From an uncultured Candidatus Saccharibacteria bacterium (GTDB lineage: Bacteria; Patescibacteriota; Saccharimonadia; Saccharimonadales; JBBQAJ01), in contig CAZQHP010000001.1 in NCBI GenBank assembly GCA_964593805.1, positions 64,091-128,090 of the forward strand: DNA of 64,000 nt, in the 5' to 3' direction. Numbering within the stretch: the stretch's first letter is position 1; every line of letters starts with the position of its first letter. A program made the translations under genes and the position numbers. This document shows positions 2,417-18,844 of the stretch, piece by piece. The notes under the pieces were generated by a model. The model did no database searches and was not told where the DNA came from. It was given only the letters and a program-made list of their open reading frames with translations.

Positions 2417-3260
2417 ATTGAGGTTCCAGGGCGTTTTTAACGCGGGCGGCGGATTCTTCCGGGCGGTAGTCGTCAAACCACAGCACATGCCAGCCAAATT
2501 TCTCTGCCGCCATGACATTGGCTCGAGAATCGTCTACCAGCAGAATCTCTGCAGGCTCGCAGCCCGCCTGTTTCTGAGCCGCTTCGTAAATCTTGGGTTC
2601 GGGTTTGATAGCTCCTAGTTGAGAAGAGTCAATAATAGCGCTGTAGCGGATGTCTGGTAGCAGGCCGGCGGCTCGCATGGCGTCTATAAACCCTGGCATA
2701 ATGTTGCTGAGCAGGCCAACTTGGTAATATTCGGCCGCCCAGCGCACTAGTTCATGCATTTCCGGTATGGGATCCACGGCGTCCAGGTAATAGGCTTGCC
2801 AGTCCATTTCGGCCATGCGCAGCTCTTTTGCCATGGCCTGGTTAAAATCAGCCACCGGCATGTCGCCGCGGCAAACCGCGTCGTTGTAGTGCCAAAAAGT
2901 CGTTTCAATCACGTCCGCTGCCGCGCCGGTATCGGCCGCCAACTGCGTGAAAGCCCGGTGGAAAAACCGCACCAAGCAGCCATTTATATCAAAAAATACA
3001 AACCGAACACCGCTTTTGGAGCGGTATTTTTTGCTGGCTGGGATCGCTGGCGCCACGTCTCCCATCAGTTCGTTCAAAGAAACGCCCAGGGCTGCCGCGA
3101 TAGCCTGGATGGTAAATATGGAGGGGGACTTTATAGCCCCGCGTTCAATTTTGGCGAGCGTAGAGTAACTGAGCCCTGCCTTGTGGCAGAGATCTTGCTG
3201 TGTTAGACCAGCTTTTTTGCGCGCCGTTTGTAACTGGCGACCGAGTCCCACCTCATCCAT
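2406..3260 (-). CDS. XRE-type helix-turn-helix domain fused to a HAD-superfamily hydrolase domain
   Basis: The N-terminus LGRQLQTARKKAGLTQQDLCHKAGLSYSTLAKIERG is an HTH_3/XRE pattern. HAD-like motif I is FVFFDINGCLV and a late acidic motif is LLVDDSRANV. The 3' end overlaps valS by 11 nt, convergently. Confidence 0.75.
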   Translation of the reverse strand: MDEVGLGRQLQTARKKAGLTQQDLCHKAGLSYSTLAKIERGAIKSPSIFTIQAIAAALGVSLNELMGDVAPAIPASKKYRSKSGVRFVFFDINGCLVRFFHRAFTQLAADTGAAADVIETTFWHYNDAVCRGDMPVADFNQAMAKELRMAEMDWQAYYLDAVDPIPEMHELVRWAAEYYQVGLLSNIMPGFIDAMRAAGLLPDIRYSAIIDSSQLGAIKPEPKIYEAAQKQAGCEPAEILLVDDSRANVMAAEKFGWHVLWFDDYRPEESAARVKNALEPQSTV

Positions 3261-3381
3261 ATAGGGATTATAGTACCGGTTTTATAGATAAAAAACTAGT
3301 ATCAAATGGCTAGTTAGGCATGAGACAAACTTCGTTTTTCTCATCGCGTCCGCCGTGGCGGAGCGCTCTTTTCCTTGAAAT

Positions 3382-3555
3382 CTATATGAAGACGCCCAGA
3401 ACGGTGATTATCAAAACCATAGCGCCAACGCCGGCGAAACCCGCCACCGTCAAGGAATTTTTTATATTGCCGCCAGTGGAACGCATGACTTGGTTATATA
3501 CCCAGGCGGCGCAGCCAGCTCCGAGCAGTAACCCAATAGTAAAGTTTGAAAACAT
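3382..3555 (-). CDS. Small two-helix membrane protein (57 aa), absent from the ORF track because it is under 60 aa
   Basis: My translation is MFSNFTIGLLLGAGCAAWVYNQVMRSTGGNIKNSLTVAGFAGVGAMVLIITVLGVFI. A GGAG lies 4 nt upstream of the ATG, and the ORF starts 13 nt after the HIT gene stop on the same strand. Confidence 0.55.
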   Translation of the reverse strand: MFSNFTIGLLLGAGCAAWVYNQVMRSTGGNIKNSLTVAGFAGVGAMVLIITVLGVFI

Positions 3556-3567
3556 AACTCCAGTCTA

Positions 3568-3960
3568 CTAAAACGCCAGTTTTTTAGCCATCTCAGCTAG
3601 TGAATTGTGGTCTGGTTCGCTACTCATATCCGCGTTGTGGCGGAATTCTTCGGTGGTATGGAAGGGGATGACGTGTACATGGGCGTGCGGCACATCCACG
3701 CCAATCACTTGCGTGCCGACGTACGGCATGCCAAGTACATCCCGCAGGTGTCTGGCGACTTTTTGGACGGCAGCCATGAGAGCGGCGTAATCTTCGGTTT
3801 CCAGATCCCACACAAACTCCACCTGCGCTTTAGGAATCACCAAAGTATGCCCGGGCTGAACGGGATGTATGTCCAAAAACGCCAGTGTTTTTTCGTCTTC
3901 ATACACTTTGTGGCAGGGAATCTCGCCCTTAATGATTTTGGTAAATATAGAATCTTCCAC
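3568..3960 (-). CDS. HIT (histidine triad) family nucleotide hydrolase
   Basis: The histidine triad HAHVHVIP is near the C-terminus, with the N-terminal FTKIIKGEIP pattern. Start codon is GTG. Confidence 0.88.
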   Translation of the reverse strand: MEDSIFTKIIKGEIPCHKVYEDEKTLAFLDIHPVQPGHTLVIPKAQVEFVWDLETEDYAALMAAVQKVARHLRDVLGMPYVGTQVIGVDVPHAHVHVIPFHTTEEFRHNADMSSEPDHNSLAEMAKKLAF

Positions 3961-4031
3961 CGTTACATTATAGCGTAGTAGTATTCACATTTTAGGCGCC
4001 AAAATTCATTAACTTTGCTATAACGATAATA

Positions 4032-4946
4032 ATGTCAGGATTTGAAACTGCACCTAGATTTCAGAGAATACTAAGCCATGTAGCCAAGGCCTTATTGGTA
4101 TACGCCGCCGCAGCTGCACCAATTGACAACATGCCTACGTGCACCGAACAACTCTACCAGGCTGACTCGACGGAGCAGGGCGTTGGACTGGAGGGTGGGT
4201 CGGTTAATGATTTGCTCATAAACGATAGTCTAAGTATCGTGACCTACAACATTAAGTCCGGGGAGCGTGGCATCCAAGAAGTAGCTGACGAGCTGGCACA
4301 GCAGGAACCTGACGTCATCTGTACTCAAGAAACGGTTGCCAGTAATGTTGATCCAATTCTTAAAGCAACTGGCTTATCACATCACGCCGTGGCGTGGGCT
4401 AGTGAGTCCGACGGCCAGCCATTTGGCAACGTAACTTTTTCTGATTCCGAGATTATCGACAGTTATACAATCCCACTGCCGCGCATTTACGATGAGCAAC
4501 GATCTTTGCTGGTAACAACACATCAACGCGACGGGGAAAAGTTTTATGTTTTAAACACCCACTTGACACCCAAAAACGCCACGGCGCTGGTTGAGGGCAC
4601 AGAAGATACTCAGATATCTGAACGTGATTTACAGGCCATTTACGTCATGAAAGAATTAAATAGCTTGCCAGCTACGGATCCAGCGTTTTTCTGCGGGGAC
4701 TTGAACGCGCGACCAGGATCAAGTACTTACAACGAAATGACTGGAGGTAGATTTATTGATGGAGTGACGGCTGTTGGTGATAAAACGCTCGAAACCTTCG
4801 CAGGTAGTGACGTGCAGATTGACTATATATTAAACAACGGCCAGAAGTGGCTTTTAAGTAAAGTTCGTACATTTGGAGAACGGCAAACCGATCACTGTGG
4901 CGTTGAGGGCGAATTCATACAGCTTGCTGAAACAGAAACTGCTTAA
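4032..4946 (+). CDS. Endonuclease/exonuclease/phosphatase (EEP) family protein
   Basis: An ordered EEP motif series is present: VTYNIKSG, ICTQET, LNTHL, GDLNA, DYIL, TDHCGV. Confidence 0.8.
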   Translation: MSGFETAPRFQRILSHVAKALLVYAAAAAPIDNMPTCTEQLYQADSTEQGVGLEGGSVNDLLINDSLSIVTYNIKSGERGIQEVADELAQQEPDVICTQETVASNVDPILKATGLSHHAVAWASESDGQPFGNVTFSDSEIIDSYTIPLPRIYDEQRSLLVTTHQRDGEKFYVLNTHLTPKNATALVEGTEDTQISERDLQAIYVMKELNSLPATDPAFFCGDLNARPGSSTYNEMTGGRFIDGVTAVGDKTLETFAGSDVQIDYILNNGQKWLLSKVRTFGERQTDHCGVEGEFIQLAETETA

Positions 4947-4978
4947 TTAAGTATATTAATGCAGTACAATAAAGCCAT

Positions 4979-6121
4979 ATGCAGTTTGTGAAAAGATTTT
5001 CACGTGGTTTGGCTTCTACACTACTGAAATTAACTCTGTTTGGAGCGGCCATCACAGCTTCGCTAGTGGCGGTTTTTGCATCGCCGGTAGTGCTGAAAGA
5101 TTCTTTAGCGGAAAATAATCTGTATGACGGTCTGGTACAAAATATTCTTTCGGCCGTCCAGAACAGTGACGTGTCAGGAGAGTCGCAAGCACCGGCCGAT
5201 AAACAGCGCAGCCTGGATGTGCTTAAATCAGCCGCGACTCAAGCCTTTACACCAGAAGTTCTCCAAAGCGCCACGGAACAAGGCCTGGACGGCATTTACC
5301 GCTGGCTGAACGGTGAAGTAGACCAGCCAGATTTCCGGATTGATTTGTCGCAGGCAAAAGCCAACTTCATCGCTGCGGCTGGTGCGGAGCTGGAAGCATA
5401 TGTGGGCGGTTTACCTGTTTGCACAAATGCGCAAATGAAGACACTAGACCCAGATACTGACCCTTTTGCCCTCACGTGCCGGCCATCTAATTTAACAGTC
5501 GCGGTCATAAAGGATCGGGGGTTAGCGGAACTAACCAACAGCGACGAATTTTTCCCTAACCCCGTCATCACTGCCGATAGCCTATCCAAGAACGAAAGTG
5601 GAAAGAACTTCTTTGAACAAGCCGAAGGTGCTCAGGAAGCTTATAAAGCAGTCAAGGCTTTGCCATGGATACTTTTAGTGCTTAGCGCACTATTTGCGGC
5701 GGCAGTTATATTTCTAAGCGAAACCAAACGAAAGGGCGCTAGAAGCGTTGCTATAAGCGTGCTGGGTACGGGTCTTTTCCTGTTTTTCACTACTTGGCTA
5801 TTCGGCTTCCTGTTTGGGCGAGCGGCCGAACCTGGAGGGATGCTTGGCAATTCTATAAACAATGATTTCAGGGAATCGCTTTTGGCCTTAATCCGTTCGC
5901 TAAACAGTATTTTTAACAAAACTGTGCTGGTTTATTGTCTGCTTTATATTGCGCTTGGAGCAGTGATACTGGCGGCTCTGCAATTTACCAAACCAAAGGA
6001 GCATGAAGACAAAAAACTAGACCTCGAAACGACCAAATCTGAAGAACCGACTGAAAAGCCCGAAAATCCAGCAGCAACCGAGCCAGAAAAGACCTCGGCC
6101 GCTAAAGAAACCAAAAAATAA
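4979..6121 (+). CDS. Hypothetical polytopic membrane protein with a Lys/Glu/Pro-rich tail
   Basis: Long ORF with an N-terminal hydrophobic helix, several C-terminal hydrophobic helices and an acidic/lysine tail. I recognise no family. Confidence 0.65.
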   Translation: MQFVKRFSRGLASTLLKLTLFGAAITASLVAVFASPVVLKDSLAENNLYDGLVQNILSAVQNSDVSGESQAPADKQRSLDVLKSAATQAFTPEVLQSATEQGLDGIYRWLNGEVDQPDFRIDLSQAKANFIAAAGAELEAYVGGLPVCTNAQMKTLDPDTDPFALTCRPSNLTVAVIKDRGLAELTNSDEFFPNPVITADSLSKNESGKNFFEQAEGAQEAYKAVKALPWILLVLSALFAAAVIFLSETKRKGARSVAISVLGTGLFLFFTTWLFGFLFGRAAEPGGMLGNSINNDFRESLLALIRSLNSIFNKTVLVYCLLYIALGAVILAALQFTKPKEHEDKKLDLETTKSEEPTEKPENPAATEPEKTSAAKETKK

Positions 6122-7818: not shown

Positions 7819-7843
7819 AAAAATCGCAATTATGGCGATTTTT
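7819..7843. terminator. Bidirectional hairpin terminator between tRNA-Ser (+) and comFC (-)
   Basis: AAAAATCGC aattatg GCGATTTTT forms a 9-bp stem with A-run and T-run flanks on both strands. Confidence 0.6.
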
Positions 7844-8516
7844 ATTGTTTTTGGGCGAAGGCTACGGCAGCAACGGATTTGGCGCCGGCTTGTTTAAGGG
7901 CTAGTGTCATGGCTTCTAGAGTAGAGCCGGTAGTTACTACGTCGTCCACAATCAAAATATCTCTGCCTTTGACCAGCCTTGGTTTGGTAACTACAAAAGT
8001 GTTTTTGAGCTGAGCCAAGCGCTTTTGACGGTTGGCGCCAACTTGCCGCGTTTGCAACAAATGGGTTACGGCGCGCACCGACATTAGGCCTCGTTTGCGG
8101 GCAATCGCCCGGGCCAGCAAAGCGGCGTGGTCATAACCGCGGGCGCGTACCCGGCTGGTGGCGGTTGGCACGGGGATTACCAGGCTAGCCAGGGGCAAAT
8201 AGGGCAGTACTTCGTCCATTGCTTCGGCGATAACTTGTACTGCTGCCTGTGCTCGTTCGTACTTGTAGCGGTGCAGCAGGGTTTTGGCATGGCCGTCGTA
8301 GTCGGTTCTTATCCAGACATGCCCTATGCGAGTTTGTTTTTTGCAGCGGTCGCAGACGGCAAAATTCGTGGTAATGCGGCGGCAACGGAAACAGCGGCTG
8401 GGCAGTTCTGGAAAAACGTCGGGCAAACACCAGTCGCAGACCAGCTTGCCCTCAGCTCCGCAGGCCAGGCAATTATGTGGAGCTATGGCAGAGAGCAAGG
8501 TGTCTAGTAGTGGCAT
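7842..8516 (-). CDS. comFC: ComF family protein (phosphoribosyltransferase-like competence protein)
   Basis: N-terminal Cys clusters (CLACG...CDWC, CFRC...CDRC) and a C-terminal PRTase motif ILIVDDVVTTGSTL. Confidence 0.85.
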   Translation of the reverse strand: MPLLDTLLSAIAPHNCLACGAEGKLVCDWCLPDVFPELPSRCFRCRRITTNFAVCDRCKKQTRIGHVWIRTDYDGHAKTLLHRYKYERAQAAVQVIAEAMDEVLPYLPLASLVIPVPTATSRVRARGYDHAALLARAIARKRGLMSVRAVTHLLQTRQVGANRQKRLAQLKNTFVVTKPRLVKGRDILIVDDVVTTGSTLEAMTLALKQAGAKSVAAVAFAQKQ

Positions 8517-8542
8517 GTTTCCAGTGTACCACCGGAAAAGTC

Positions 8543-8625
8543 CAGAGCTGAGAGTACTGAGTATGGAGTATCGGGCTACGTGTGATTTTCGCGCTCAGTA
8601 CTCTGTACTATGGACTCCGTACTCC
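8543..8625. repeat. ORF-less copy of the GAGT(A/C)C-word repeat family that flanks the 17.3-kb four-helix-bundle gene
   Basis: The left arm cagagctgagagtactgagtatggagtatcggg closely matches the reverse complement of 17711-17746. The right arm contains CTCAGTACTCT, which pairs with AGAGTACTGAG (11 bp). It shares the 11-mer GAGTACTGAGC with 17308-17318. Confidence 0.7.
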
Positions 8626-8745
8626 TCTGTTGTATATATTATGTTGTAAATATAAGAGGTAGAGGTTGCGCCCCTGATTACCTGGAGCTATACTTGCTAG
8701 TAACAAAAATTGCAAACACACCGTTCTAAAACTGATTTATAAAAC

Positions 8746-8778
8746 TGTTTTTCAAACCAAGGAACTGTTTGAAAAACA
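8746..8778. promoter_or_regulatory. Perfect 12-bp inverted repeat with a 9-nt spacer upstream of hsp20 (candidate operator or RNA structure)
   Basis: TGTTTTTCAAAC (8746-8757), then caaggaact, then GTTTGAAAAACA (8767-8778). It lies 93 nt upstream of the hsp20 ATG. Confidence 0.5.
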
Positions 8779-8870
8779 TAAAGGAAGAATCGACCAGAAG
8801 TTGGAGTAAGGGCAAAGACTTTTGCACTTACGGAAGCTGACCGTCGGTTCTGACGTGGAGGGTAACAACT

Positions 8871-9353
8871 ATGGCTCGAAGAAGCCGAGACGAAGATTTG
8901 TTGATGGAAGATGAGTTAACCGCAGCGTTTTTGGGCGAAGAAGATTTTGGCCCTGCGACTGATGACCAAACCGCTCCTACTGGTACTGCAACCGCAACTG
9001 CTGATGACTGGGAAGAAGAAGACGCCGTGCCCGGGCAACTGGCGGTAGATGTTTATGAAACCAAAGAACGCCTGGTAGTAAAAGGCCGCGTGGCCGGCGT
9101 AAACAAAAGCGACCTGGACGTCAGCATTGCCGACAATACGCTGAGCATTCGTGGCACGCTTTCCGCCGGCAACGAAGACGACGTAGAGAATTATTTTGTA
9201 CAAGAATGTTACTGGGGCGAATTCAGCCGTAGCATAGCTTTGCCCGTTCCGGTCAAAGAAGACGAGATTGAAGCCGTCCTAAAAGATGGCGTGCTGACAA
9301 TTAGCTTTACCAAAGTTAAGCAAGACAGCGTCAAAAAGATCCAAGTCCTTTAA
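8871..9353 (+). CDS. Hsp20/alpha-crystallin family small heat-shock protein
   Basis: Alpha-crystallin domain pattern (LAVDVYETKERLVVKGRVAGVNKSDLDVSIADNTLSIRG ... GEFSRSIALPVPV ... AVLKDGVLTISF). SD GGAGGG lies upstream. Confidence 0.88.
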   Translation: MARRSRDEDLLMEDELTAAFLGEEDFGPATDDQTAPTGTATATADDWEEEDAVPGQLAVDVYETKERLVVKGRVAGVNKSDLDVSIADNTLSIRGTLSAGNEDDVENYFVQECYWGEFSRSIALPVPVKEDEIEAVLKDGVLTISFTKVKQDSVKKIQVL

Positions 9354-9382
9354 GCTGAAAGCTTAAAGCTAAAAGTCAAAAG
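9352..9382. repeat. Left arm of the inverted repeat enclosing the four-helix-bundle gene
   Basis: AAGCTGAAAGCTTAAAGCTAAAAGTCAAAAG. The 18-nt core at 9365-9382 is the exact reverse complement of 9743-9760. Confidence 0.85.
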
Positions 9383-9390
9383 AGAAGACA

Positions 9391-9726
9391 GTGCGATTTG
9401 AAGATATAGTGGTTTGGGAAAAAGCCCGTGAACTTTGTAACGAAGTGTATCGGGCTTTTTCTGTTTGCAAGGATTTTGCGTTTCGCGACCAGATACAGAG
9501 GGCAGCCGTTTCGGTTATGAATAACATTGCAGAGGGCGCTGAACGTGCCACAGACAAAGAGTTACGACAATTTTTACATATTGCCAAAGGTTCTTGTGGT
9601 GAAGTCAGGTCGATGCTGTTTTTGGCTAGCGATCTTAAATATATCCAAGAGGCGGAATTCACACAACTTTTCGAGCGGTCAGAAGAAATCTCAAAAATGC
9701 TTGCCGGATTTATCAAAAAGCTCTAA
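9391..9726 (+). CDS. Four-helix-bundle protein (23S rRNA intervening-sequence protein / Avd-like family)
   Basis: Family pattern: VWEKARELCNEVY...FRDQIQRAAVSVMNNIAEGAER...FLHIAKGSCGEVRSML. Start codon is GTG. Confidence 0.85.
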   Translation: MRFEDIVVWEKARELCNEVYRAFSVCKDFAFRDQIQRAAVSVMNNIAEGAERATDKELRQFLHIAKGSCGEVRSMLFLASDLKYIQEAEFTQLFERSEEISKMLAGFIKKL

Positions 9727-9742
9727 CCATTTCTGATCAGAG

Positions 9743-9773
9743 CTTTTGACTTTTAGCTTTTGACTTTGAGCTT
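9743..9773. repeat. Right arm of the inverted repeat enclosing the four-helix-bundle gene
   Basis: CTTTTGACTTTTAGCTTTTGACTTTGAGCTT. It matches the reverse complement of the left arm at 27 of 31 positions. Confidence 0.85.
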
Positions 9774-9774
9774 G

Positions 9775-10206
9775 TTATTCAGTGGCCTTGGCAAGAACAA
9801 ATTTGACTACAACCTGAGCTAGTGCAACCACAACCAAGCCAATTATGGCGTACAGAATGGTGTTTTTGGCACCAGTTATGTTGCCGCTATCTCCACCAGA
9901 TGTAATGTACTTCAGACCACCAATGATAATCATGATGACCGAAACCACGCCCACGATTAGAGAAAATACATTGATAACCAGTTTTATGATTTGATCAACT
10001 CTACCGCCAGCTGCTGTGACGTCTGGTTGCGTACAAGTACTCGTACCAGCAGTTACCCCGCTAGTGCTGAGATCAACACCACAAGCTATCCCGCCGCTCA
10101 CGTCGTCAGTTGCTGCGTATACAGTTGCGACCGACATAGTAGCCGGCGCCAATAATAACGTTGCTAGTGATGCCGTTGTTAATAGTTTTTTTAGCTTTTT
10201 AATCAT
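9775..10206 (-). CDS. VirB2/TrbC-type T4SS pilin-like protein, paralogue 6 (last in operon)
   Basis: Signal peptide, a variable region with 2 Cys, then the conserved hairpin IMIIIGGLKYITSGGDSGNITGAKNTILYAIIGLVVVALAQVVV. Confidence 0.8.
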   Translation of the reverse strand: MIKKLKKLLTTASLATLLLAPATMSVATVYAATDDVSGGIACGVDLSTSGVTAGTSTCTQPDVTAAGGRVDQIIKLVINVFSLIVGVVSVIMIIIGGLKYITSGGDSGNITGAKNTILYAIIGLVVVALAQVVVKFVLAKATE

Positions 10207-10270
10207 TTTGGGGTGTGACCTTTCTTAAATTCTCTATCATTTATACCACAAACGCTTTATCAGATTCAAG

Positions 10271-10720
10271 CTACGGCGTGCAGCTAGTGGTCACTTTGCC
10301 GCCGCATTTAGGTAGAGCTGTTGATTTGGCGAGCACAAACTTTACTATCACCTGAGCCATAACAACTACCACCAAGCCGACTATGGCATAGAGAATGGTG
10401 TTTTTGGCGCTGGCAGTGTTGGAGCCTTCGCCTTGAGATAATATGTATTTGAGACCACCGACGATAATCATAATTATTGCCGCAACGCCTACAATCATGC
10501 TGAACACATTGATAGCTAATTTGAGAGTATTGTCCACATTTGGTCCGGGGACGGCAGTGTCACAATTGCCACTGTTGCCGGTACTGGCCTGCACTAGCGC
10601 CTCGCAGGCTTGGCTTTTGGGGTCAATCTGGGCGGCACGTACCTGTTTGCCAGAAAAACTTAGAAGGGTCGCCGTAAATACAAGTCCAATTACTGCAATA
10701 TGTATGATTCGTTTTAGCAT
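10271..10720 (-). CDS. VirB2/TrbC-type T4SS pilin-like protein, paralogue 5
   Basis: Signal peptide, 2 Cys in the variable region, hairpin IMIIVGGLKYILSQGEGSNTASAKNTILYAIVGLVVVVMAQ, and an extra C-terminal Cys pair (PKCGGKVTTSCTP). Confidence 0.8.
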   Translation of the reverse strand: MLKRIIHIAVIGLVFTATLLSFSGKQVRAAQIDPKSQACEALVQASTGNSGNCDTAVPGPNVDNTLKLAINVFSMIVGVAAIIMIIVGGLKYILSQGEGSNTASAKNTILYAIVGLVVVVMAQVIVKFVLAKSTALPKCGGKVTTSCTP

Positions 10721-10732
10721 TTCATCCTCATT

Positions 10733-11149
10733 TTACAATCTACTGACTGCCAAAGCTACTACAGCCCGAGCTATCACCACGATTACCAGCCCAATTACGG
10801 CAAACATTATAGTGTTTTTGGCCTTGTTTACCTTAGCACTGTCTCCGCTAGAACGTACATATTCAAACCCGCCAACTATTATGACAACTACGGCCGCTAT
10901 GCCGGTAATAAGCGCGAATATATTGGCAATCCTGGTTATCACGCCGTCCGTGCCGGTAATGGGGTTAGAGCCATCCGTAGAACAAACAACCGACTTCTGG
11001 CTTTGGCCGGTACTGTCGACTGCTTGCGGACAATCCTGTTTGACTTGACCAAATGGATCAAAGGCTGCTGCGCGGCTACCCGAAAAACCTATCACCAAGA
11101 ACAGAAAGGCTACGAACGATAAGCAAGCGGCAATTACGTATCTTTTCAT
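10733..11149 (-). CDS. VirB2/TrbC-type T4SS pilin-like protein, paralogue 4
   Basis: Signal peptide, 2 Cys in the variable region, hairpin VVIIVGGFEYVRSSGDSAKVNKAKNTIMFAVIGLVIVVIA. Confidence 0.8.
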   Translation of the reverse strand: MKRYVIAACLSFVAFLFLVIGFSGSRAAAFDPFGQVKQDCPQAVDSTGQSQKSVVCSTDGSNPITGTDGVITRIANIFALITGIAAVVVIIVGGFEYVRSSGDSAKVNKAKNTIMFAVIGLVIVVIARAVVALAVSRL

Positions 11150-11153
11150 TAAC

Positions 11154-11444
11154 TTATATTATGGCCCTTAGGAACACATTCACTATACCAAAAGCGCTGA
11201 AGGCAATCACCAAGCCAATCAGAGAATACATGATGATGTCTTTGGCTTTGCCCAATTTGTCCGGCTCCCCCTGCGATATCACGTACTTAAAGCCGCCATA
11301 CACCACACTGATAAACGCAATCCCCGCTAGTATGCCAAAAATCACATTGAATATAACTATAACCAACTTAGAATCTAGGCCAGCCTTTGGTAATGGACTT
11401 GTATCTATTGGTAATGCTGCAAGCAGTGCAAATATCAGCCCCAT
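11154..11444 (-). CDS. VirB2/TrbC-type T4SS pilin-like protein, paralogue 3 (minimal, 96 aa, no Cys)
   Basis: Hairpin ISVVYGGFKYVISQGEPDKLGKAKDIIMYSLIGLVIAFSA. The ATG abuts the upstream stop (TAG ATG). Confidence 0.78.
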   Translation of the reverse strand: MGLIFALLAALPIDTSPLPKAGLDSKLVIVIFNVIFGILAGIAFISVVYGGFKYVISQGEPDKLGKAKDIIMYSLIGLVIAFSAFGIVNVFLRAII

Positions 11445-11978
11445 CTAACCTCCTAATTTATTACCAATAAAAGCAACTAATGCCGTAGCGGTAACCACAA
11501 TACCAAGCCCGATTACCGAATTAACCAGAGTGGCCATAGCCGCTTCTATATTTTTGGGCTCGCCTTGGCTAGACATGTACTTATAGCCGCCCATAATTAT
11601 GAAGGCAACCGCAACCAACGCGCCCAAACGTAGCAAAATATCTATGATTGCCAAACCAATTTGTACAAGATGGTCGGTTAACTCACCGCCGATTATCCCG
11701 CATGTATTTTTAGTATTGTTACTGTCAATAAACGGATTGTCGGAAACTACTTCGCCATAGTCATCCCCAAAATATTTGTACCAACCAGGTAGAATACCCA
11801 GCAGTTTGTAGTCCTTGTCACACTTTATAGACCCAGCTGGTGCGGCAAATGCTGACTGGGCTGGGAGTATGCCAGTTATTGCTGGCAGGGCGGCAAGTAC
11901 AAGCCCGGCAGTTACAATTATGGCCAAAAGGACAATCTGGCGTTTTATGCTTTGTGCCAGATATTTCAGATATATCAT
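11445..11978 (-). CDS. VirB2/TrbC-type T4SS pilin-like protein, paralogue 2
   Basis: I moved the start to the ATG at 11978, which forms an ATGA overlap with the upstream stop. There are 2 Cys in the variable region and the hairpin IIMGGYKYMSSQGEPKNIEAAMATLVNSVIGLGIVV. Confidence 0.78.
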   Translation of the reverse strand: MIYLKYLAQSIKRQIVLLAIIVTAGLVLAALPAITGILPAQSAFAAPAGSIKCDKDYKLLGILPGWYKYFGDDYGEVVSDNPFIDSNNTKNTCGIIGGELTDHLVQIGLAIIDILLRLGALVAVAFIIMGGYKYMSSQGEPKNIEAAMATLVNSVIGLGIVVTATALVAFIGNKLGG

Positions 11979-12643
11979 AATATGCCCCCTGGCAACAGCC
12001 ATTGGGCAACAGCAAACAGCAGGCCGTATCCTACCAAAGTTAAAATAGCACTGAAAATGAGTTTTTTAGCCTTTTCTACCGCACCCGGATCGCTACCAGC
12101 CATTGAGTACTTAATACCGCCCACAATAATCATGCCGGTAACTACTATCCCGATTAGTGCACTTAGAAGTTTGATTGCGGTATTGATGTAGGTGAATAAG
12201 CCGCAAGCAGTGCTTTCTTGGCCTGTACAGGCAGTCCCGTGGGGCTGAGCTATACAGTTTTGTTTTTGTTCCGTCGTCCAGTCTTGAAAATCATCTGGTA
12301 AAGCAGCACAATCTAAGGGAGGGGCGGTCGAGTTTGGGGTAATGGCCGTGGGCAGAGGCGGTGGATTGCCAGTTGTATCGGTAAAATGCGCGTCTACTTG
12401 TCTCACACATTCAGCTATCGCATTATTATTGCCAGTGTTCGTCTCATAGCACGCCACGTTATATTTGTCTCGCTTGGAGCTTATGCAGTTTGCGATTTGG
12501 GTTGCGCCAGACCTGGGGTCGTCGCTACAAGTACCATGATCTGCTGACGCGGTTTGGCGACTCGGCGCAACAAACAGGGCAGACACAACTGCAACCAGAA
12601 CCACCAGCGCAAAAATTAATTTTTTGTGTTTTATTGATAACAT
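11975..12643 (-). CDS. VirB2/TrbC-type T4SS pilin-like protein, paralogue 1 (largest, 8-Cys ectodomain)
   Basis: Signal peptide, a roughly 140-aa variable region with 8 Cys, then the hairpin MIIVGGIKYSMAGSDPGAVEKAKKLIFSAILTLVGYGLL. Confidence 0.78.
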   Translation of the reverse strand: MLSIKHKKLIFALVVLVAVVSALFVAPSRQTASADHGTCSDDPRSGATQIANCISSKRDKYNVACYETNTGNNNAIAECVRQVDAHFTDTTGNPPPLPTAITPNSTAPPLDCAALPDDFQDWTTEQKQNCIAQPHGTACTGQESTACGLFTYINTAIKLLSALIGIVVTGMIIVGGIKYSMAGSDPGAVEKAKKLIFSAILTLVGYGLLFAVAQWLLPGGIL

Positions 12644-12829
12644 TTAACTAAACTATAATATCACTCCTTGCAAAAAACAAGGCTCTGCGCTACGACTCTG
12701 GCTTTAATTTGCAATGTGCGGATTCGCTTCAACCAAAGATTACGATTGCGCCTAAAAGTCGCAAACGACCTCTTGGCCAAGCCAAAGCTATCTTGTTTAT
12801 GGCTAGATTTTTTGCTTATATATAGGCAA

Positions 12830-15800
12830 ATGTATCGCAAATTGGTATCTCTTGTAGGCAGTGGGCTGATTTTGGTTTCAGTCTTTATGTCGCTGTTCGC
12901 TGCCGTACGCCCCATGCAGGCAAGCGCTACTTCGACGGAACCGCAGGACGAACAGAGGAGACTACTCGTTGCGTTTAAGTACTGTCTGAGCGATCAAAAA
13001 ATTGACGAAAGCGACAATGGCAACCCGGCTGAAGACTTTGCTGATATGTGGGATGGTGGCATTGATGGCTATAAGAAAGAGGACGTTGTGGTTGGGTTTG
13101 AACTTGAGGGTGATAACGGTGTTAAATCTTGTGAAACGAGCATTTTACCGGGGCTAAAAATTCTGGAACCTCAAATAACTACACCGGGTGCGGCCGAAAC
13201 TCGTTTGTTTGCTTTACTGGCCAATTCCGATGGGAAAGTTTTTAGAGCAAATAGGGATAAATTGGTCGCAAGAATAGACGACCAGATTAAATCTATGGGC
13301 TCCGACCCTAGGAAGGCATTTACCGCAAATCGCCTATCGCCGCTTATCACGCTTTGTTACGACATTAAAATAGACAAACCCTCCTACGAAGCGACAAATC
13401 AAAACTTTAGAGCTAAGTTCTTGGGAACACAATACTTTTTTGAGCACAAAAGCGATGCCGACGATGATAGCTATAAATGGCTCAAACAGGGGGCTATTGG
13501 GGAGAATGTTTTTCTGGGCGATATAAAACTAGGTTTTGAGTCATCGAAAAACGCGATAGGTAAGGGTGATTGGGATTCATTTGAAAGTGATTTCTACCCT
13601 TTTGGTTCGGACTTACAAAGTTTTACTAGTGGGCATGCCGGCAACAATGGTATTCTGGACTGTAAATTCATAAAAGAAAAAATGGAATCAGGCTTTTTCA
13701 CGGATGATGTTATATCTTCTGTGGATATAGATAAAGACATTGTAATAATTGGCGTAGACACCAACGGCGACGGCAAAGCCGATGTGGCACTTGATCCCGT
13801 AACCGTAGCCAGCGTAGATGCAGGTGGCGACACGCACGTGGATTGTCAAACTGGCGGGCTTTCTTTGAACCCTTTTACGCTAGCTGATAACGCCATTAGC
13901 TGGTTGCTGTGCCCTTTGCTTGATGGCGCTCAGGCGATTGTAAACACGGTTGGCGGCTGGGTGGTGGACCAGTTGGAATTTGATGTGGATCAATACCTTG
14001 TAGGACCGACAACCGATAAGAACGATGCAGAAATTTTCCCAGTCAAAGACGCCTGGAATGCCTTCAGGGTTATTTCGCTTTCACTCGTAATACTCGTGGC
14101 GCTGGCTGGCATATTAATGGGGAGTTTTATAGACGCTTATACTATAAAGAAGATACTGCCGCGCATGCTTATAGCCATAATTGCTATTTCGCTGTCGTGG
14201 GATCTGTTGGTGCTTGTTATAAGAATTACTAACTCGCTGGGTATTGCCGTCAGGTCAATGATAGATTTGCCATTCAATAGCCTGAACAATGCCGCCATAA
14301 ACCCGCTGGTTATTTTGGGTGGAGCAGGTGCCGCTACCGGGCTAACGACTATTTTGGGAGCACTAAGTCTTATTGGAACCGCGGCGCTGGCGGTACTTTT
14401 TGCGTTTATTTTCACGATACTGCGAGTTGGAGCAATCATTGCTTTGGTAATCTTTGCGCCGATAGCAATATTGTGCTGGATACTTCCAGGCACGCAAAAA
14501 GGCTGGAATTTCTGGCAAGAGGGCTTGATGGGAGCTTTGCTCATGTTCCCGATAGTAACGGCATTTTTGTCAATTGGTTCCGCTTTTGGGAAAATAATTT
14601 ATAACATTGAACCCAATAGCCCGCTCAACCAAACCATTGCCCTTATAGCCACCTATGCGCCATATTTCTTGATTCCCAAAGCCTTTAGCATGGCAGGCGG
14701 TATAGTTGGCAACCTTTCTGGCCAGCTAAATGATCGTGGTCGTGGCGCCTTTGACCGCCTCAAAAAATTCCGCCAAGACCAAGGCCAAAAACGCTGGGGT
14801 GATATCAAGGGTGGCAGATACTTTCACGGCGGCAATAAGGATAGTTTTAGAAGAAGAGTTAGTGGCATCGCACAAGGCGCCTCATTATTGCCTAATGCCG
14901 GACTTGGTCGCGATACAAGTAAATGGAAGGGTAAGTTGGATGACGCACGGTCCGTAGCCAGCCAAACCTATGCGTCAAAGGCTACGCAAGATGACGCCGC
15001 GAAGCTAGCTAGAGACAAAGATGACGCTATTATGAGAGCATTCATAGAATCTGGAGGTGACTTAGATGAAGCTGAAAAAGTATTAGTATCTAGTCAAGGT
15101 ACCGCCGATCTTTACGGTGGAGGTAAAAAAGCAGATGGAACATTATGGGAAGAAGGGACTGAGGCGTATAAACAAAACTGGGAGGCAAATAGAGGAGCTC
15201 GTGAATCTGCGTTACGTGGAATAGAGGCACTTAAAAAAGATTATGGCGCAGATACCGCAAAGCTTATAGCGGCAAGAACTCTTTTCAGGAGCTCGACCGC
15301 GTTTTCTTACGAGAATGGATTTGGTGAAATGGCGGAAATAATCAGAAAAGTAGCCACCAAGAGCGATGGTACAGTTGATACGCTTTTGGCTACACAGTTA
15401 CTTGAGGAAGGAAACGCTGCTCAAAATGCCGCTGGACGAAACGATGTGGGAGGTGCTAGCTTCTCTGTAGGTATAAAAGCAATTAACAATGTTGGTCGTC
15501 AAAAGATTAATGCTGACGGAACTCTATCCACTGAAATATATACTTCTCAAGATGCCACGCATGATGCTTGGGAATCTGCTTTTGGCGGCAAACCACCAGA
15601 CGAGGTCTTCCGAGGTGGGAAAAAGAAAAATGGTCAAGCAGTTTCTGGTTATTTGTATGGGTATACAGATGGTGCGGGCAATCATCACAAGGGTGAGGTA
15701 GAGATTCGGATGGAAAAACTTCAAGCAGATACCAGTCTAACTGAAGAACAGAGAGCTCAAGAAGCAACTCGCATATTGCAATGGGAAGAATCGTATCATG

Positions 15801-16192
15801 TTGCTGCATCTCGCTCTTCTGCTGATATTCGCGAAGTTATGGGTGCATCTTTCGGTGAAAAGTTTGATCATGATCTGTTGCCTCCAGAAATGCGTGAGAA
15901 AATCTTTACTAAACAAGTACCTGTTTTGCGGAATGGCGTCCCAGTAATGAAACAAGATCCAACTAAGCCAAAAGGGTTCATGATACCCGAAACAACTACT
16001 CAGTATGATCCAGATCTTGAGCTAACTCGTGTTGAGGTATTTGATAAACTTCGTGGTACCAAAGAATGGCAATTATATGCCAAAGAGTATGGGTATGCGG
16101 CGGCGGCGGCAGGAGCTAATGTCGCTGTTGCAGGCATAGAACCACCCCCAGTTGATCCAGGAGCTACTGGTGCAGGCGGAGGAGCACCTTAA
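12830..16192 (+). CDS. Giant VirB6/TrbL-like polytopic T4SS membrane protein (about 1120 aa) with large N- and C-terminal extensions
   Basis: I moved the start to the ATG at 12830 (MYRKLVSLVGSGLILVSVFMSLFAAVRPMQASA is a signal/anchor). The central block has at least 6 hydrophobic helices (AFRVISLSLVILVALAGILMG ... IALIATYAPYFLIPKAF). A hydrophilic tail of about 480 aa ends in an Ala/Gly/Pro-rich stretch. Confidence 0.7.
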   Translation: MYRKLVSLVGSGLILVSVFMSLFAAVRPMQASATSTEPQDEQRRLLVAFKYCLSDQKIDESDNGNPAEDFADMWDGGIDGYKKEDVVVGFELEGDNGVKSCETSILPGLKILEPQITTPGAAETRLFALLANSDGKVFRANRDKLVARIDDQIKSMGSDPRKAFTANRLSPLITLCYDIKIDKPSYEATNQNFRAKFLGTQYFFEHKSDADDDSYKWLKQGAIGENVFLGDIKLGFESSKNAIGKGDWDSFESDFYPFGSDLQSFTSGHAGNNGILDCKFIKEKMESGFFTDDVISSVDIDKDIVIIGVDTNGDGKADVALDPVTVASVDAGGDTHVDCQTGGLSLNPFTLADNAISWLLCPLLDGAQAIVNTVGGWVVDQLEFDVDQYLVGPTTDKNDAEIFPVKDAWNAFRVISLSLVILVALAGILMGSFIDAYTIKKILPRMLIAIIAISLSWDLLVLVIRITNSLGIAVRSMIDLPFNSLNNAAINPLVILGGAGAATGLTTILGALSLIGTAALAVLFAFIFTILRVGAIIALVIFAPIAILCWILPGTQKGWNFWQEGLMGALLMFPIVTAFLSIGSAFGKIIYNIEPNSPLNQTIALIATYAPYFLIPKAFSMAGGIVGNLSGQLNDRGRGAFDRLKKFRQDQGQKRWGDIKGGRYFHGGNKDSFRRRVSGIAQGASLLPNAGLGRDTSKWKGKLDDARSVASQTYASKATQDDAAKLARDKDDAIMRAFIESGGDLDEAEKVLVSSQGTADLYGGGKKADGTLWEEGTEAYKQNWEANRGARESALRGIEALKKDYGADTAKLIAARTLFRSSTAFSYENGFGEMAEIIRKVATKSDGTVDTLLATQLLEEGNAAQNAAGRNDVGGASFSVGIKAINNVGRQKINADGTLSTEIYTSQDATHDAWESAFGGKPPDEVFRGGKKKNGQAVSGYLYGYTDGAGNHHKGEVEIRMEKLQADTSLTEEQRAQEATRILQWEESYHVAASRSSADIREVMGASFGEKFDHDLLPPEMREKIFTKQVPVLRNGVPVMKQDPTKPKGFMIPETTTQYDPDLELTRVEVFDKLRGTKEWQLYAKEYGYAAAAAGANVAVAGIEPPPVDPGATGAGGGAP

Positions 16193-16220
16193 ACAACCAA
16201 AGATGTATACTTACTGATAT

Positions 16221-17306
16221 ATGGCTACGTACAAGGTAATTCAGGATATTGAGTCGGAAGACAAACTGCTGGGGCCGCTTACGCTGAGGCAATTTGTCTA
16301 TGCGGCTATTGTTGTGATGATGGGTTTCCTGGCTTTCAAACTGGCGGCGGTCAGCTCGCTGTTTGTTGTCCCGTTTATCTTGCCTATGGCATTTTTTAGC
16401 CTTTTGGCCGCGCCGTTCGGCCACGACCAATCGTCTGAGGTTTGGCTGCTGGCAAAAATTGGCTTTTTTCTAAAGCCGCGGCGGCGCATCTGGGACCAGG
16501 GCGGTATGCAAGAACTGGTGACCATAACGGCGCCTAAAAAACTGGAGCAGCACCTGACGGACGGACTGACTCAAATGGAAGTCAAAAGCCGTTTGCAAGC
16601 GCTGGCCAACACCATAGACAGCCGCGGCTGGGCCGTCAAAAACGTCAATGTGAATCTGTTTAACCAGCCGTCTTATTTGACCAGCGGCACAGGCTCTGAC
16701 CGTTTGGTAGATGGCAGCAGCCTGCCCCAAGCCGTGCCAAATTATGAAATCGTCGCGGCCGATGACATATTGGACGAAACGAGCAACCCGACCGCCCAGC
16801 ATCTGGACGCTATGATTAGCCAATCCGAACAGGCCCACCGCGAAACGCTGGTAGCGGCTGTGCGAAACGGTCCCCAGCCAGCAGCGCCGCCGGCAGATTA
16901 CTGGTTTATGAATCAGTCTGCCAGCCCTCCACAGCCAAAACCCGGCTATGCTACGTTTGACGGCGGCTCAACCATCGCGCCCGGGGCAACCCCGGCAGAT
17001 GATAGGCAAGTATCAGACTCTGGGACGGCAGAGCAGGAACTGCTAAACCAAATTCACCGTGAAAACTCCAGGCCAAACCCAGCCTACGGCCATATGCGCG
17101 TGCTTGATCCAGCCGGCGCTAAACAAACAAGCCAAGCCCCGCCAAGTGCCAACACTACCCCTATGCGGGCGCGGCAAGACAACGCCAAAGCCGACCTGGC
17201 ACGACTAGCGGCCAACGACGACTTAAACGTTTCTACTATTGCCAGAGAAGCCAACAAAGCCGCCAAACAGCCCCCGGATGACGAAGTAGTTATTAGCTTG
17301 CGCTAA
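16221..17306 (+). CDS. PrgI/VirB3-like membrane protein with a long low-complexity C-terminal extension
   Basis: The N-terminus VIQDIESEDKLLGPLTLRQFVYAAIVVMMGFLAFKLAAVSSLFVVPFILPMAFF resembles the PrgI-family pattern (acidic lead-in, LTLRQF, two TM helices). The rest is Pro/Ala/Gln-rich. Confidence 0.65.
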   Translation: MATYKVIQDIESEDKLLGPLTLRQFVYAAIVVMMGFLAFKLAAVSSLFVVPFILPMAFFSLLAAPFGHDQSSEVWLLAKIGFFLKPRRRIWDQGGMQELVTITAPKKLEQHLTDGLTQMEVKSRLQALANTIDSRGWAVKNVNVNLFNQPSYLTSGTGSDRLVDGSSLPQAVPNYEIVAADDILDETSNPTAQHLDAMISQSEQAHRETLVAAVRNGPQPAAPPADYWFMNQSASPPQPKPGYATFDGGSTIAPGATPADDRQVSDSGTAEQELLNQIHRENSRPNPAYGHMRVLDPAGAKQTSQAPPSANTTPMRARQDNAKADLARLAANDDLNVSTIAREANKAAKQPPDDEVVISLR

Positions 17307-17307
17307 T

Positions 17308-17340
17308 GAGTACTGAGCCGAGAGTCCTGAGTCCGGAGTC
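17308..17340. repeat. Arm of the inverted repeat enclosing the second four-helix-bundle gene
   Basis: GAGTACTGAGCCGAGAGTCCTGAGTCCGGAGTC matches the reverse complement of 17711-17746 at 29 of 33 positions. The perfect 15-nt core is GAGAGTCCTGAGTCC (17320-17334). Confidence 0.85.
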
Positions 17341-17689
17341 AAGAGGGAAGGCTTCGGATAAATCCTGCTAGTAACTTTGAAACTTCATCTGTCTTTTGTA
17401 GAAGTTCTGCTTGTTTTTCACGTTTTAGATAACCTAGATCTGGAGCAACCAAGAGCATTGATTCTACTTCTGCGGCAGAACCCTTGGCAATAGACAAAAA
17501 GTTTTTGAATGACTTGTCACTCCTTTTGGCATAACCTTCCGCTATATTGTTCATAATTGATATTGAAGCTCTTTGGATTTGATCCTTGAAGCCATAGTCC
17601 CGACAGTTTTGAAAGGATTTATAGATATCGACTGTCAAATCGTGCGCTTTCTGCCATGCCAATATATCTTTGAATGATCGAATAGCCAT
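17339..17689 (-). CDS. Four-helix-bundle protein (23S rRNA intervening-sequence protein / Avd-like family), second copy
   Basis: ILAWQKAHDLTVDIYK...FKDQIQRASISIMNNIAEGYAKRS...FLSIAKGSAAEVESML. It is a clear paralogue of the 9391-9726 protein. Confidence 0.85.
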   Translation of the reverse strand: MAIRSFKDILAWQKAHDLTVDIYKSFQNCRDYGFKDQIQRASISIMNNIAEGYAKRSDKSFKNFLSIAKGSAAEVESMLLVAPDLGYLKREKQAELLQKTDEVSKLLAGFIRSLPS

Positions 17690-17710
17690 TTCCCATATTC
17701 TAGCATTTTC

Positions 17711-17746
17711 CCGTACTCTGGACTCAGGACTCTCAGCTCTGTACTC
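17711..17746. repeat. Opposite arm of the inverted repeat enclosing the second four-helix-bundle gene
   Basis: CCGTACTCTGGACTCAGGACTCTCAGCTCTGTACTC. The core GGACTCAGGACTCTC is at 17720-17734. Confidence 0.85.
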
Positions 17747-18743: not shown

Positions 18744-18844
18744 TTTCATCATTTCAAAGTTCAAATATTTGTGATTTGAGTTTTGTTTTTTCTTTGTTAT
18801 CTGCTGCTTGGCATTTGAATTTTACCTCCGAAGGAGGTCTCTAG
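18740..18844 (+). CDS. Candidate 34-aa micro-ORF filling the whole gap between two T4SS genes
   Basis: Its ATG overlaps the upstream stop (ATGA), and its TAG stop is immediately followed by the virB4 ATG (TAGATG). Peptide: MISSFQSSNICDLSFVFSLLSAAWHLNFTSEGGL. This is speculative. Confidence 0.35.
   Translation: MISSFQSSNICDLSFVFSLLSAAWHLNFTSEGGL

Follow-up and report, generated by a model that had tools for sequence, protein, structure and literature searches.

In a 64,000-nucleotide stretch of contig CAZQHP010000001.1 (assembly GCA_964593805.1) from an uncultured "Candidatus Saccharibacteria" bacterium, referred to here as the window, two genes for four-helix-bundle proteins of the 23S rRNA intervening sequence (IVS) family PF05635 are each enclosed by a pair of inverted arrays of tandem heptamers. 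Such bracketing is the rule for the PF05635 family across bacterial phyla, the window being one example that exposes a family-wide regularity, and a bona fide IVS within a 23S rRNA gene of Azospirillum lipoferum has the same architecture. The best explanation, evenly poised between holding and failing, is that these units are promoterless, gain- and loss-prone cassettes of the IVS type, whose arms would, by analogy with the rRNA copies, pair in the transcript and form a substrate for RNase III. The cassettes and their associated features lie at the following positions of the window.

8539 to 8616, no strand: hairpin without an open reading frame (ORF), of the cassette 2 arm type, with 23-nt arms at 8539-8561 and 8594-8616 and a 32-nt loop
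9352 to 9382, plus strand: upstream arm of cassette 1, about four tandem heptamers AAAGCTN / AAAGTCA (Tandem Repeats Finder [TRF], period 7, 4.0 copies)
9391 to 9726, plus strand: cassette 1 gene, encoding a 111-aa four-helix-bundle protein (PF05635, TIGR02436, and NF008912)
9716 to 9747, plus strand: small A-tract/stem/T-tract hairpin found in the repeat scan, with counterparts in related cassettes
9743 to 9773, plus strand: downstream arm of cassette 1, about 4.7 heptamers AGCTTTT / GACTTTT
17308 to 17339, plus strand: arm downstream of the cassette 2 gene, about 4.9 GAGTCCN- / GAGTACN-type heptamers
17339 to 17689, minus strand: cassette 2 gene, encoding a 116-aa protein (PF05635 and TIGR02436)
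17715 to 17746, plus strand: arm upstream of the cassette 2 gene, with outermost unit CTCTGTACTC at 17737-17746

Both ORFs match the full PF05635 domain of Pfam (123.1 and 124.6 bits; cutoff, 33.8) and TIGR02436 (116.8 and 119.7 bits; cutoff, 24). The two proteins are 49% identical, and the arm words of their cassettes differ. The family profile also matches the pentameric four-helix-bundle structure 2gsc_A (XCC0516; E = 2.6e-16) and 2rld_A (E = 2.2e-10), and PF05635 homologues are described as pentamers of four-helix bundles in the work cited as reference 48 of PMC3936711.

The upstream arm of cassette 1 begins within the stop codon of hsp20 (8871-9353), the gene starts 37 nt past the end of hsp20 in the same orientation, and the stop codon of a convergent type IV secretion system (T4SS) pilin gene (9775-10206, minus strand) lies 2 nt beyond the downstream arm; the convergent spacer between hsp20 and the pilin operon is fully occupied by the cassette, from stop codon to stop codon. 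The 31-nt arms are complementary at 27 of 31 positions (87%), have a perfect 18-nt core (AAAGCTAAAAGTCAAAAG), are separated by 360 nt, and enclose the ORF. Cassette 2 is flanked by PrgI-like and TraC-like T4SS genes, which are co-directional and to which its gene is antisense. Its left arm begins 1 nt past the stop codon of the PrgI-like gene, and its 32-nt arms, 91% complementary and 375 nt apart, contain the core GAGAGTCCTGAGTCC and likewise enclose the ORF. Among family members, cassette 2 belongs to a rare antisense class. Rfam detected only four tRNAs over the whole window, placing the cassettes outside any 16S or 23S rRNA gene, and no Rfam family matched the cassette region even at an E value of ≤10.

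The arms are tandem arrays of 7-nt units, with a TRF period of 7 and 4.0 to 4.9 copies in all four cases. A stricter period-7 scan of the 64 kb (threshold, ≥16 of 21 matches) returned four arrays, three of them at the two cassettes and ORF-less hairpin sites and the fourth a T-rich stretch (18767-18795). Under one scoring scheme, the inverted flanks of the window cassettes score 21 and 20, compared with a 99th percentile of 10.5 in 405 shifted controls and a median of 7 for 138 other genes in related loci.

A preliminary description of the window had assigned both ORFs to the four-helix-bundle/23S rRNA IVS family, an assignment that the profile scores establish, and had placed gene 9391-9726 between arms at 9352-9382 and 9743-9773 with 27 of 31 matches and an 18-bp core, all of which was recovered at those coordinates. 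The inverted arms and core that it reported around the paralogue at 17339-17689 are also present, with arm boundaries at 17308-17339 and 17715-17746, and the short degenerate subrepeats that it noticed within the arms prove to be tandem heptamers. A third, ORF-less copy at about 8543, which it described as sharing 13 nt with the arm at 17.7 kb, was found as well. Its location of both cassettes exactly at operon boundaries is partly right: cassette 1 lies in its convergent spacer, and the junction of cassette 2 lies between co-directional T4SS genes and may be internal to an operon.

Homologues were surveyed in one genome per species at 80 loci (56 to 71% identity), giving 76 usable genes from candidate phyla radiation (CPR) groups, Bacteroidota, Leptospirales, Nitrospirota, Omnitrophota, Bdellovibrionales, and others. 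The 90 nt before each start codon were compared with the 90 nt after the stop codon, and the 99th percentile of the 405 shifted controls served as the threshold. Inverted repeats above it flank 82% of the 76 homologues (median score, 16, versus 7 in controls), and flanks this strong surround only 3.6% of the 138 non-family genes of the same loci. The word AAAGT occurs upstream of homologues, on the sense strand, at 3.5 per 100 nt versus 0.22 in controls, and ACTTT occurs downstream at 3.0 per 100 nt. Arm words are spaced 7, 8, or 9 nt apart, with four as the commonest number of units and counts ranging from 2 to 13, and the downstream array usually begins at or overlaps the stop codon.

The two arms of a cassette change their word together: AAAGTC is found with GACTTT and AAAGC with GCTTT, and CCCCAGT-, AGTCGTC-, and GGGAA-type words also occur. 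Among AAAGT-type loci, the arms of one locus pair better with each other than with arms from other loci (17.0 versus 13.5; P = 1e-5), and the mean energy of the arm duplex is -33 kcal/mol. Whatever the word, 58 of 59 loci and all 11 additional cases have an upstream arm whose sense strand is purine rich. Of all the indications that it is the sense transcript, or one of the DNA strands, that matters, this polarity is the best.

Arrays of AAAGT/ACTTT were also seen around neighboring genes outside the family, with the same polarity at L059:2966-3658 (loci from other genomes are given by their L numbers) and with reversed polarity at L038:346-1752 and L062:1305-2231; the reversed arrays suggest further arrays or cassettes nearby. 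At L056:954-1238, a 94-aa ORF lies inside a 33-nt near-perfect, nonrepetitive inverted repeat unlike the heptamer arms. Judged by eye from its motifs, this ORF looks like a GIY-YIG nuclease, and the unit is another small gene-in-stem cassette.

The same anatomy is found in more distant copies and in rRNA. Five of six plasmid-borne copies with 30 to 41% identity, from Nostoc, Calothrix, Picosynechococcus, and Riemerella, have inverted repeats built of heptamer arrays with unrelated words (GGGAAAA, GGAGTCA, AAGGTTY, GGAGATAA, and AGGGTGT). One of them sits between cas10/cmr2 and cmr3, and family members between cas genes had been found earlier (PMC3936711). On plasmid AZO_p2 of A. lipoferum 4B, an unannotated PF05635 ORF (L179:3436-3904) lies within a 23S rRNA gene delimited by Rfam (2283-5481), about 1,150 nt from its 5' end and, by inference, in the helix 45 region. 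The ORF is in the sense orientation, and its 36-nt arms, 86% complementary, consist of five purine-rich heptamers (CAGAGGA / CGGATGA). Other family members occupy insertions in the 16S and 23S rRNA genes of CPR bacteria (bioRxiv 10.1101/2024.02.27.582315). The terminal stem of an rRNA IVS has been studied biochemically in Coxiella, where a 28-bp stem is cut by RNase III in vitro and the ends map inside the stem (PMC4990558); the literature cited in that paper is said there to report RNase III cutting for Leptospira and Salmonella rRNA copies as well.

Free-standing copies are tightly inserted and mostly co-oriented with their neighbors. The upstream neighbor is co-directional at 70 of the 74 loci where it could be called (background, 86%; P = 0.013), at a median distance of 54 nt, and the downstream neighbor is co-directional at 63 of 73, at a median distance of 58 nt. 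With gaps this short, the spacers are taken up by the arms, without space for a promoter of the cassette's own, and a promoter scan found nothing upstream of either window gene above shuffled expectation. Cassettes between or beside tRNA genes, which belong to stable-RNA transcription units, were noted at 2 of 60 scanned loci (L066 and L020), and tRNA adjacency was rejected as a general context at that frequency.

The proposed cassette would thus consist of a promoterless PF05635 gene of about 115 codons, preceded immediately by some four to five purine-rich heptamers and followed, from its stop codon, by an inverted pyrimidine-rich array. It would inhabit transcribed spacers, whether rRNA helices, operon junctions, or convergent gene ends, and owe its transcription to read-through out of the host gene. 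Once transcribed, the arrays would anneal to each other, giving a duplex of about 30 bp with the ORF looped out; this duplex would serve as an RNase III substrate, and cleavage would free the ORF RNA. The insert would be tolerated because the same cleavage separates the flanking host RNAs. Over evolutionary time, cassettes would be gained, lost, flipped, and replaced, and loss of the ORF would leave a short heptamer hairpin such as that at 8539-8616. This model rests on the architecture of the rRNA copies, for which cleavage is experimental, on the promoterless, co-oriented, and tight context, and on the strand polarity of the arms. The anatomy and its generality, its identity with that of an rRNA copy, the tight co-oriented insertion, and the presence/absence polymorphism described below are direct observations. 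We infer the pairing in vivo and the means of acquisition, and the RNase III step at copies in mRNA space is extrapolated from the rRNA copies (PMC4990558).

Predicted folds agree with the model in part and also supply several points that weigh against it. The terminal stem is closed in the minimum-energy folds of both window cassettes, and cassette 2 has a z score of -5.5. However, the fold of the whole cassette 1 RNA is not exceptional (z = -1.7). G·U does not outnumber A·C among the arm mismatches (34 versus 44), and the duplexes formed by sense and antisense arms are equally stable (-33.0 versus -33.4 kcal/mol), so that a signature of selection on a sense RNA helix is absent. A conserved 5-nt core with spacers of variable sequence and length (7- to 9-nt periods) is unlike what simple selection for a stem would predict. 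Finally, cassette 2 is antisense to its neighbors and no promoter was detected for it, which leaves the expression of its gene unexplained. Given the lack of a G·U excess, the arms may have a role at the DNA level or be bound by the encoded putative pentamer.

Binding by the encoded protein is a tentative proposal and somewhat improbable. Each heptamer array would be a set of binding sites for the pentamer, with one protomer per unit on an RNA (or single-stranded DNA) stem, and the protein would autoregulate, protect, or package its own transcript; this would be compatible both with IVS-type processing and with a DNA role of the arms. The match of the family to pentameric 2gsc (E = 2.6e-16) and the approximately four to five units per arm (TRF, 4.0 to 4.9; commonest number, 4; Azospirillum, 5) fit such a stoichiometry, although unit counts vary from 2 to 13. 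A conserved 5-nt core separated by variable spacers of 2 to 4 nt is what is seen where ring-shaped proteins recognize reiterated short motifs, for which TRAP is the comparison. The core word changes between protein subfamilies, but this link could be plain coinheritance. In the ribonucleoprotein of diversity-generating retroelements (DGRs), the accessory protein Avd has all five of its protomers in contact with a single 11-bp RNA stem-loop by way of flipped-out bases (bioRxiv 10.1101/2023.10.23.563531). Avd is not detected with the family profile, however, and is linked to it by fold only, and for free-standing PF05635 proteins the argument is one of analogy.

Occupancy varies among relatives at both window junctions. 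The comFC-hsp20-pilin operon order is kept in 80 metagenomic relatives (Hsp20, 76 to 90% identical), and none of the 80 has a family member at the hsp20/pilin junction. The conclusion that this junction is never occupied in relatives was nevertheless wrong, as related cassettes are present there in L175 to L178: L175 to L177 carry a 66%-identical gene in the same orientation as cassette 1, and L178 carries a 74%-identical gene in the opposite orientation. A 70%-identical cassette lies between dnaN and recF in L174, and the cassettes of L174 to L178 all have AAAGC-type arms. In a neighbor-joining tree of Hsp20, which is of low resolution, every occupied lineage has an empty one as its sister.

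At the PrgI/TraC junction, the closest relative (L163; PrgI, 89% identical) has a different PF05635 gene (3640-4029; 129 aa) in the opposite orientation. That this gene is cassette 2 flipped by recombination between its arms was rejected, as it is a distant family member (44% identity over 39 residues) without clear inverted arms; it is a replacement or an independent insertion. Three further relatives (among L164 to L167) have an empty junction. The unit CTCTGTACTC, identical to the outermost arm unit at 17737-17746, is kept at empty junctions (L164:3576-3585 and L167), some 17 to 20 nt upstream of a conserved TATACT box, and could have been left behind by a lost cassette, mark a preferred target, or belong to the TraC-like promoter.

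Locus L072:1996-2743 holds two tandem cassettes 98% identical over 413 nt, a recent local duplication that presumably arose through the repeat arrays. In an all-against-all comparison, cassettes of different species are about 70% identical, and the only high-identity pairs are the L072 duplicate and L018/L063 (90%), the latter pair being, to judge from its sequences, probably orthologous. A search for recent cassette transfer therefore found no support. No direct repeat of >4 nt flanks any element, no transposase or recombinase gene lies in or beside the cassettes, and no protein relative was found in 2.9 million viral contigs, indicating that the family is not phage-borne.

The ORF-less hairpin at 8539-8616 lies between the divergent comFC (7842-8516, minus strand) and hsp20 genes, 23 nt upstream of the comFC start codon. 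Its arms are 83% complementary, and its predicted RNA fold has an energy of -40.5 kcal/mol (z = -3.9). The 13-mer CAGAGCTGAGAGT occurs at exactly two sites in the 64 kb, at 8543 (plus strand) and 17729-17741 (minus strand), where 0.01 would be expected, and an alignment of the left arm of the hairpin with the upstream arm of cassette 2 spans 38 nt, with bases just inside the arm among them, at about 79% identity. By this sequence likeness, the hairpin is a derivative of the cassette 2 arm type. At the corresponding place in the closest relative, L084:120-201 forms another ORF-less hairpin with a different word (AAACATC three times and GTTTGAA three times); the two hairpins have their position in common but not their sequence.

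Farther along the same intergenic region (window 8620-8870; L083 to L107), the boxes GTTGTA..TGTTGTAAATA and TAGTAACAAAAATTGCAAA are conserved upstream of hsp20 in the relatives inspected, and a perfect 12-bp palindrome (TGTTTTTCAAAC/GTTTGAAAAACA) at 8746-8778 is also present in L084. These boxes and the palindrome probably reflect heat shock regulation, as an operator or an RNA thermometer.

Taken together with the survey, these comparisons favor two broader claims of the preliminary description and contradict the possibility, raised there, that the arms are unique local palindromes that are not conserved around orthologous genes: 82% of the 76 homologues have them. Its view of a small mobile or decaying element family gains support from the occupancy changes at both junctions, which it had proposed as a point of comparison between occupied and empty sites, and from the ORF-less derivative. 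Its view of IVS-like stem-loop cassettes outside rRNA is supported by the Azospirillum copy, by the arms of the homologues, and by five of the six distant copies.

A reading in which the arms act as DNA, forming the inverted termini of a small cassette that moves or recombines, with the RNA stem a by-product, is unlikely. Insertion, excision, and inversion would in this reading be brought about by pairing or recombination of one arm with the other. It would account for the variable occupancy of the hsp20/pilin junction (80 empty, L175 to L177 occupied, and L178 inverted), for the opposite-oriented, different gene at the PrgI/TraC junction of L163 and the empty junctions of others, for the 70%-identical cassette at dnaN/recF, and for the 98%-identical tandem duplicate of L072, and it agrees with the lack of a G·U bias and the equal pairing energy of both strands. 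Against this reading, the following are missing here: transposases or recombinases in or next to the cassettes, target-site duplications, relatives in the viral contigs, and near-identical dispersed copies, in place of which DNA identity is about 70% between species and protein identity is 49% within the window pair. The constant purine-rich polarity of the upstream arm is also unexpected for a symmetric DNA site.

Use of the cassettes by the host as transcription terminators or insulators at operon ends, with the gene incidental, is considerably less probable again. Cassette 1 does sit exactly where the 80 cassette-free relatives have a canonical bidirectional intrinsic terminator in the hsp20/pilin spacer (e.g., AAAAACCCGCCC...GGGCGGGTTTTT in L084). 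In addition, the A-tract/stem/T-tract hairpin at 9716-9747, which overlaps the last codons of the cassette 1 gene and the first unit of its downstream arm, recurs at the ORF 3' end in L175 (2329-2367) and L178 (1457-1488). A terminator scan of 9352-9773 and 17308-17746, however, found no canonical terminator-like site above shuffled expectation in either cassette, and support for the terminator idea is only circumstantial. Co-directional genes at distances of about 55 nt flank most family members, where termination would be polar, and the gene is not incidental, because its protein is strongly conserved (56 to 75% identity across phyla). As a separate observation, the 5' part of the cassette 1 ORF (9418-9461) contains a perfect 11-bp hairpin (GAAAAAGCCCG ... 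CGGGCTTTTTC) with a loop of about 20 nt, which is kept in the 74%-identical homologue (L178:1160-1201) and looks like a bidirectional terminator inside coding sequence.

Chance palindromes or neutral products of replication slippage unrelated to the gene can be dismissed almost entirely: heptamers are the most overrepresented of the longer simple repeats in bacteria (PMC4692102), but the scores are far above all controls, the arms are specific to the gene family, and both their placement and their polarity are kept across phyla as well as in the rRNA copy.

The four-helix-bundle (23S rRNA IVS) protein is among the commonest uncharacterized small proteins in bacterial annotation, and one search returned 4,419 clusters. 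If free-standing copies keep the anatomy of an IVS, with about five heptamers arrayed in each arm, the IVS would represent a general class of insert, promoterless and housed in transcribed spacers, rather than an rRNA peculiarity, and cassettes inside operons (cas operons and the dnaN-recF spacer) would predict RNase III processing sites missed by annotation. Heptamer repeats that seem functionless would in turn gain a candidate protein partner and an origin. Two such repeat classes have been described, both of unknown function: the short tandemly repeated repetitive (STRR) heptamers, tandem 7-nt units that form hairpins in cyanobacterial operon spacers (PMC2670836), and the inverted GGGAATC heptamer pairs of Xanthomonas, mostly of four units (PMC4692102). 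It is conceivable, though doubtful, that PF05635 pentamers and tandem heptamer repeats belong together as the two parts of a single widespread system, in which the protein reads its own array with one protomer per unit, on the stem that the paired arms make, much as Avd holds its RNA stem-loop. Gene and arms would then be the autonomous form of an element that colonizes transcribed spacers, from rRNA helices to operon junctions, and the cyanobacterial STRRs, the Xanthomonas GGGAATC pairs, and the hairpins at 8539-8616 and in L084 would be its ORF-less relics. A protein family that has been an orphan for 30 years and a repeat class that has been one for 35 would in that case share an explanation.

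Much of the background is already known, namely, the protein family itself, rRNA IVSs with complementary termini and RNase III excision, scattered free-standing copies, and the fold relation to Avd. A literature search found no paper describing bracketing of free-standing PF05635-family genes by heptamer arrays, and no statement that the arms of rRNA IVSs are heptamer arrays or that links the family with heptamer repeats. The papers on STRR-type repeats (PMC2670836 and PMC4692102) leave the four-helix-bundle gene unmentioned. Like the window arms, those repeats are tandem 7-nt units, most often about four in number, and in spacers within operons they often form inverted pairs or hairpins. The ORF-less hairpins at 8539-8616 and L084:120-201 resemble them, and cyanobacterial PF05635 genes are flanked by STRR-like heptamers. 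However, those repeats number hundreds per genome, whereas the window has three sites in 64 kb, all tied to the PF05635 family.

Miniature inverted-repeat transposable elements and other elements with terminal inverted repeats share with the cassettes inverted ends, derivatives that lack an ORF, and a patchy distribution among relatives. Unlike them, the cassettes come without a transposase, target-site duplications, or near-identical copy families, and a short degenerate word, repeated in arrays, makes up their ends in place of a unique sequence. The fold of Avd is related, its four-helix bundles forming a pentameric barrel (PMC10053308), and Avd binds an RNA stem-loop with all five protomers (bioRxiv 10.1101/2023.10.23.563531). 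Unlike the avd gene, the window genes have no reverse transcriptase, template repeat, or variable repeat beside them, either among the neighboring genes or in repeat scans, and their proteins have no profile match to Avd.

The closest counterparts are the 23S rRNA IVSs of Leptospira, Coxiella burnetii, and Azospirillum (L179), which share with the window cassettes the PF05635 protein, a size of about 420 to 470 nt, and an ORF between terminal inverted repeats of 28 to 36 nt, the rRNA ORF being in the sense orientation. The arms of the Azospirillum IVS, with five tandem purine-rich heptamers, also resemble those in the window. RNase III processing is a demonstrated feature of the rRNA copies only. 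Unlike the rRNA copies, the window copies lie between protein-coding genes, and one is antisense to its neighbors. Because they are located outside rRNA genes, the window cassettes are not classed as rRNA IVSs; they represent this kind of element in a new setting.

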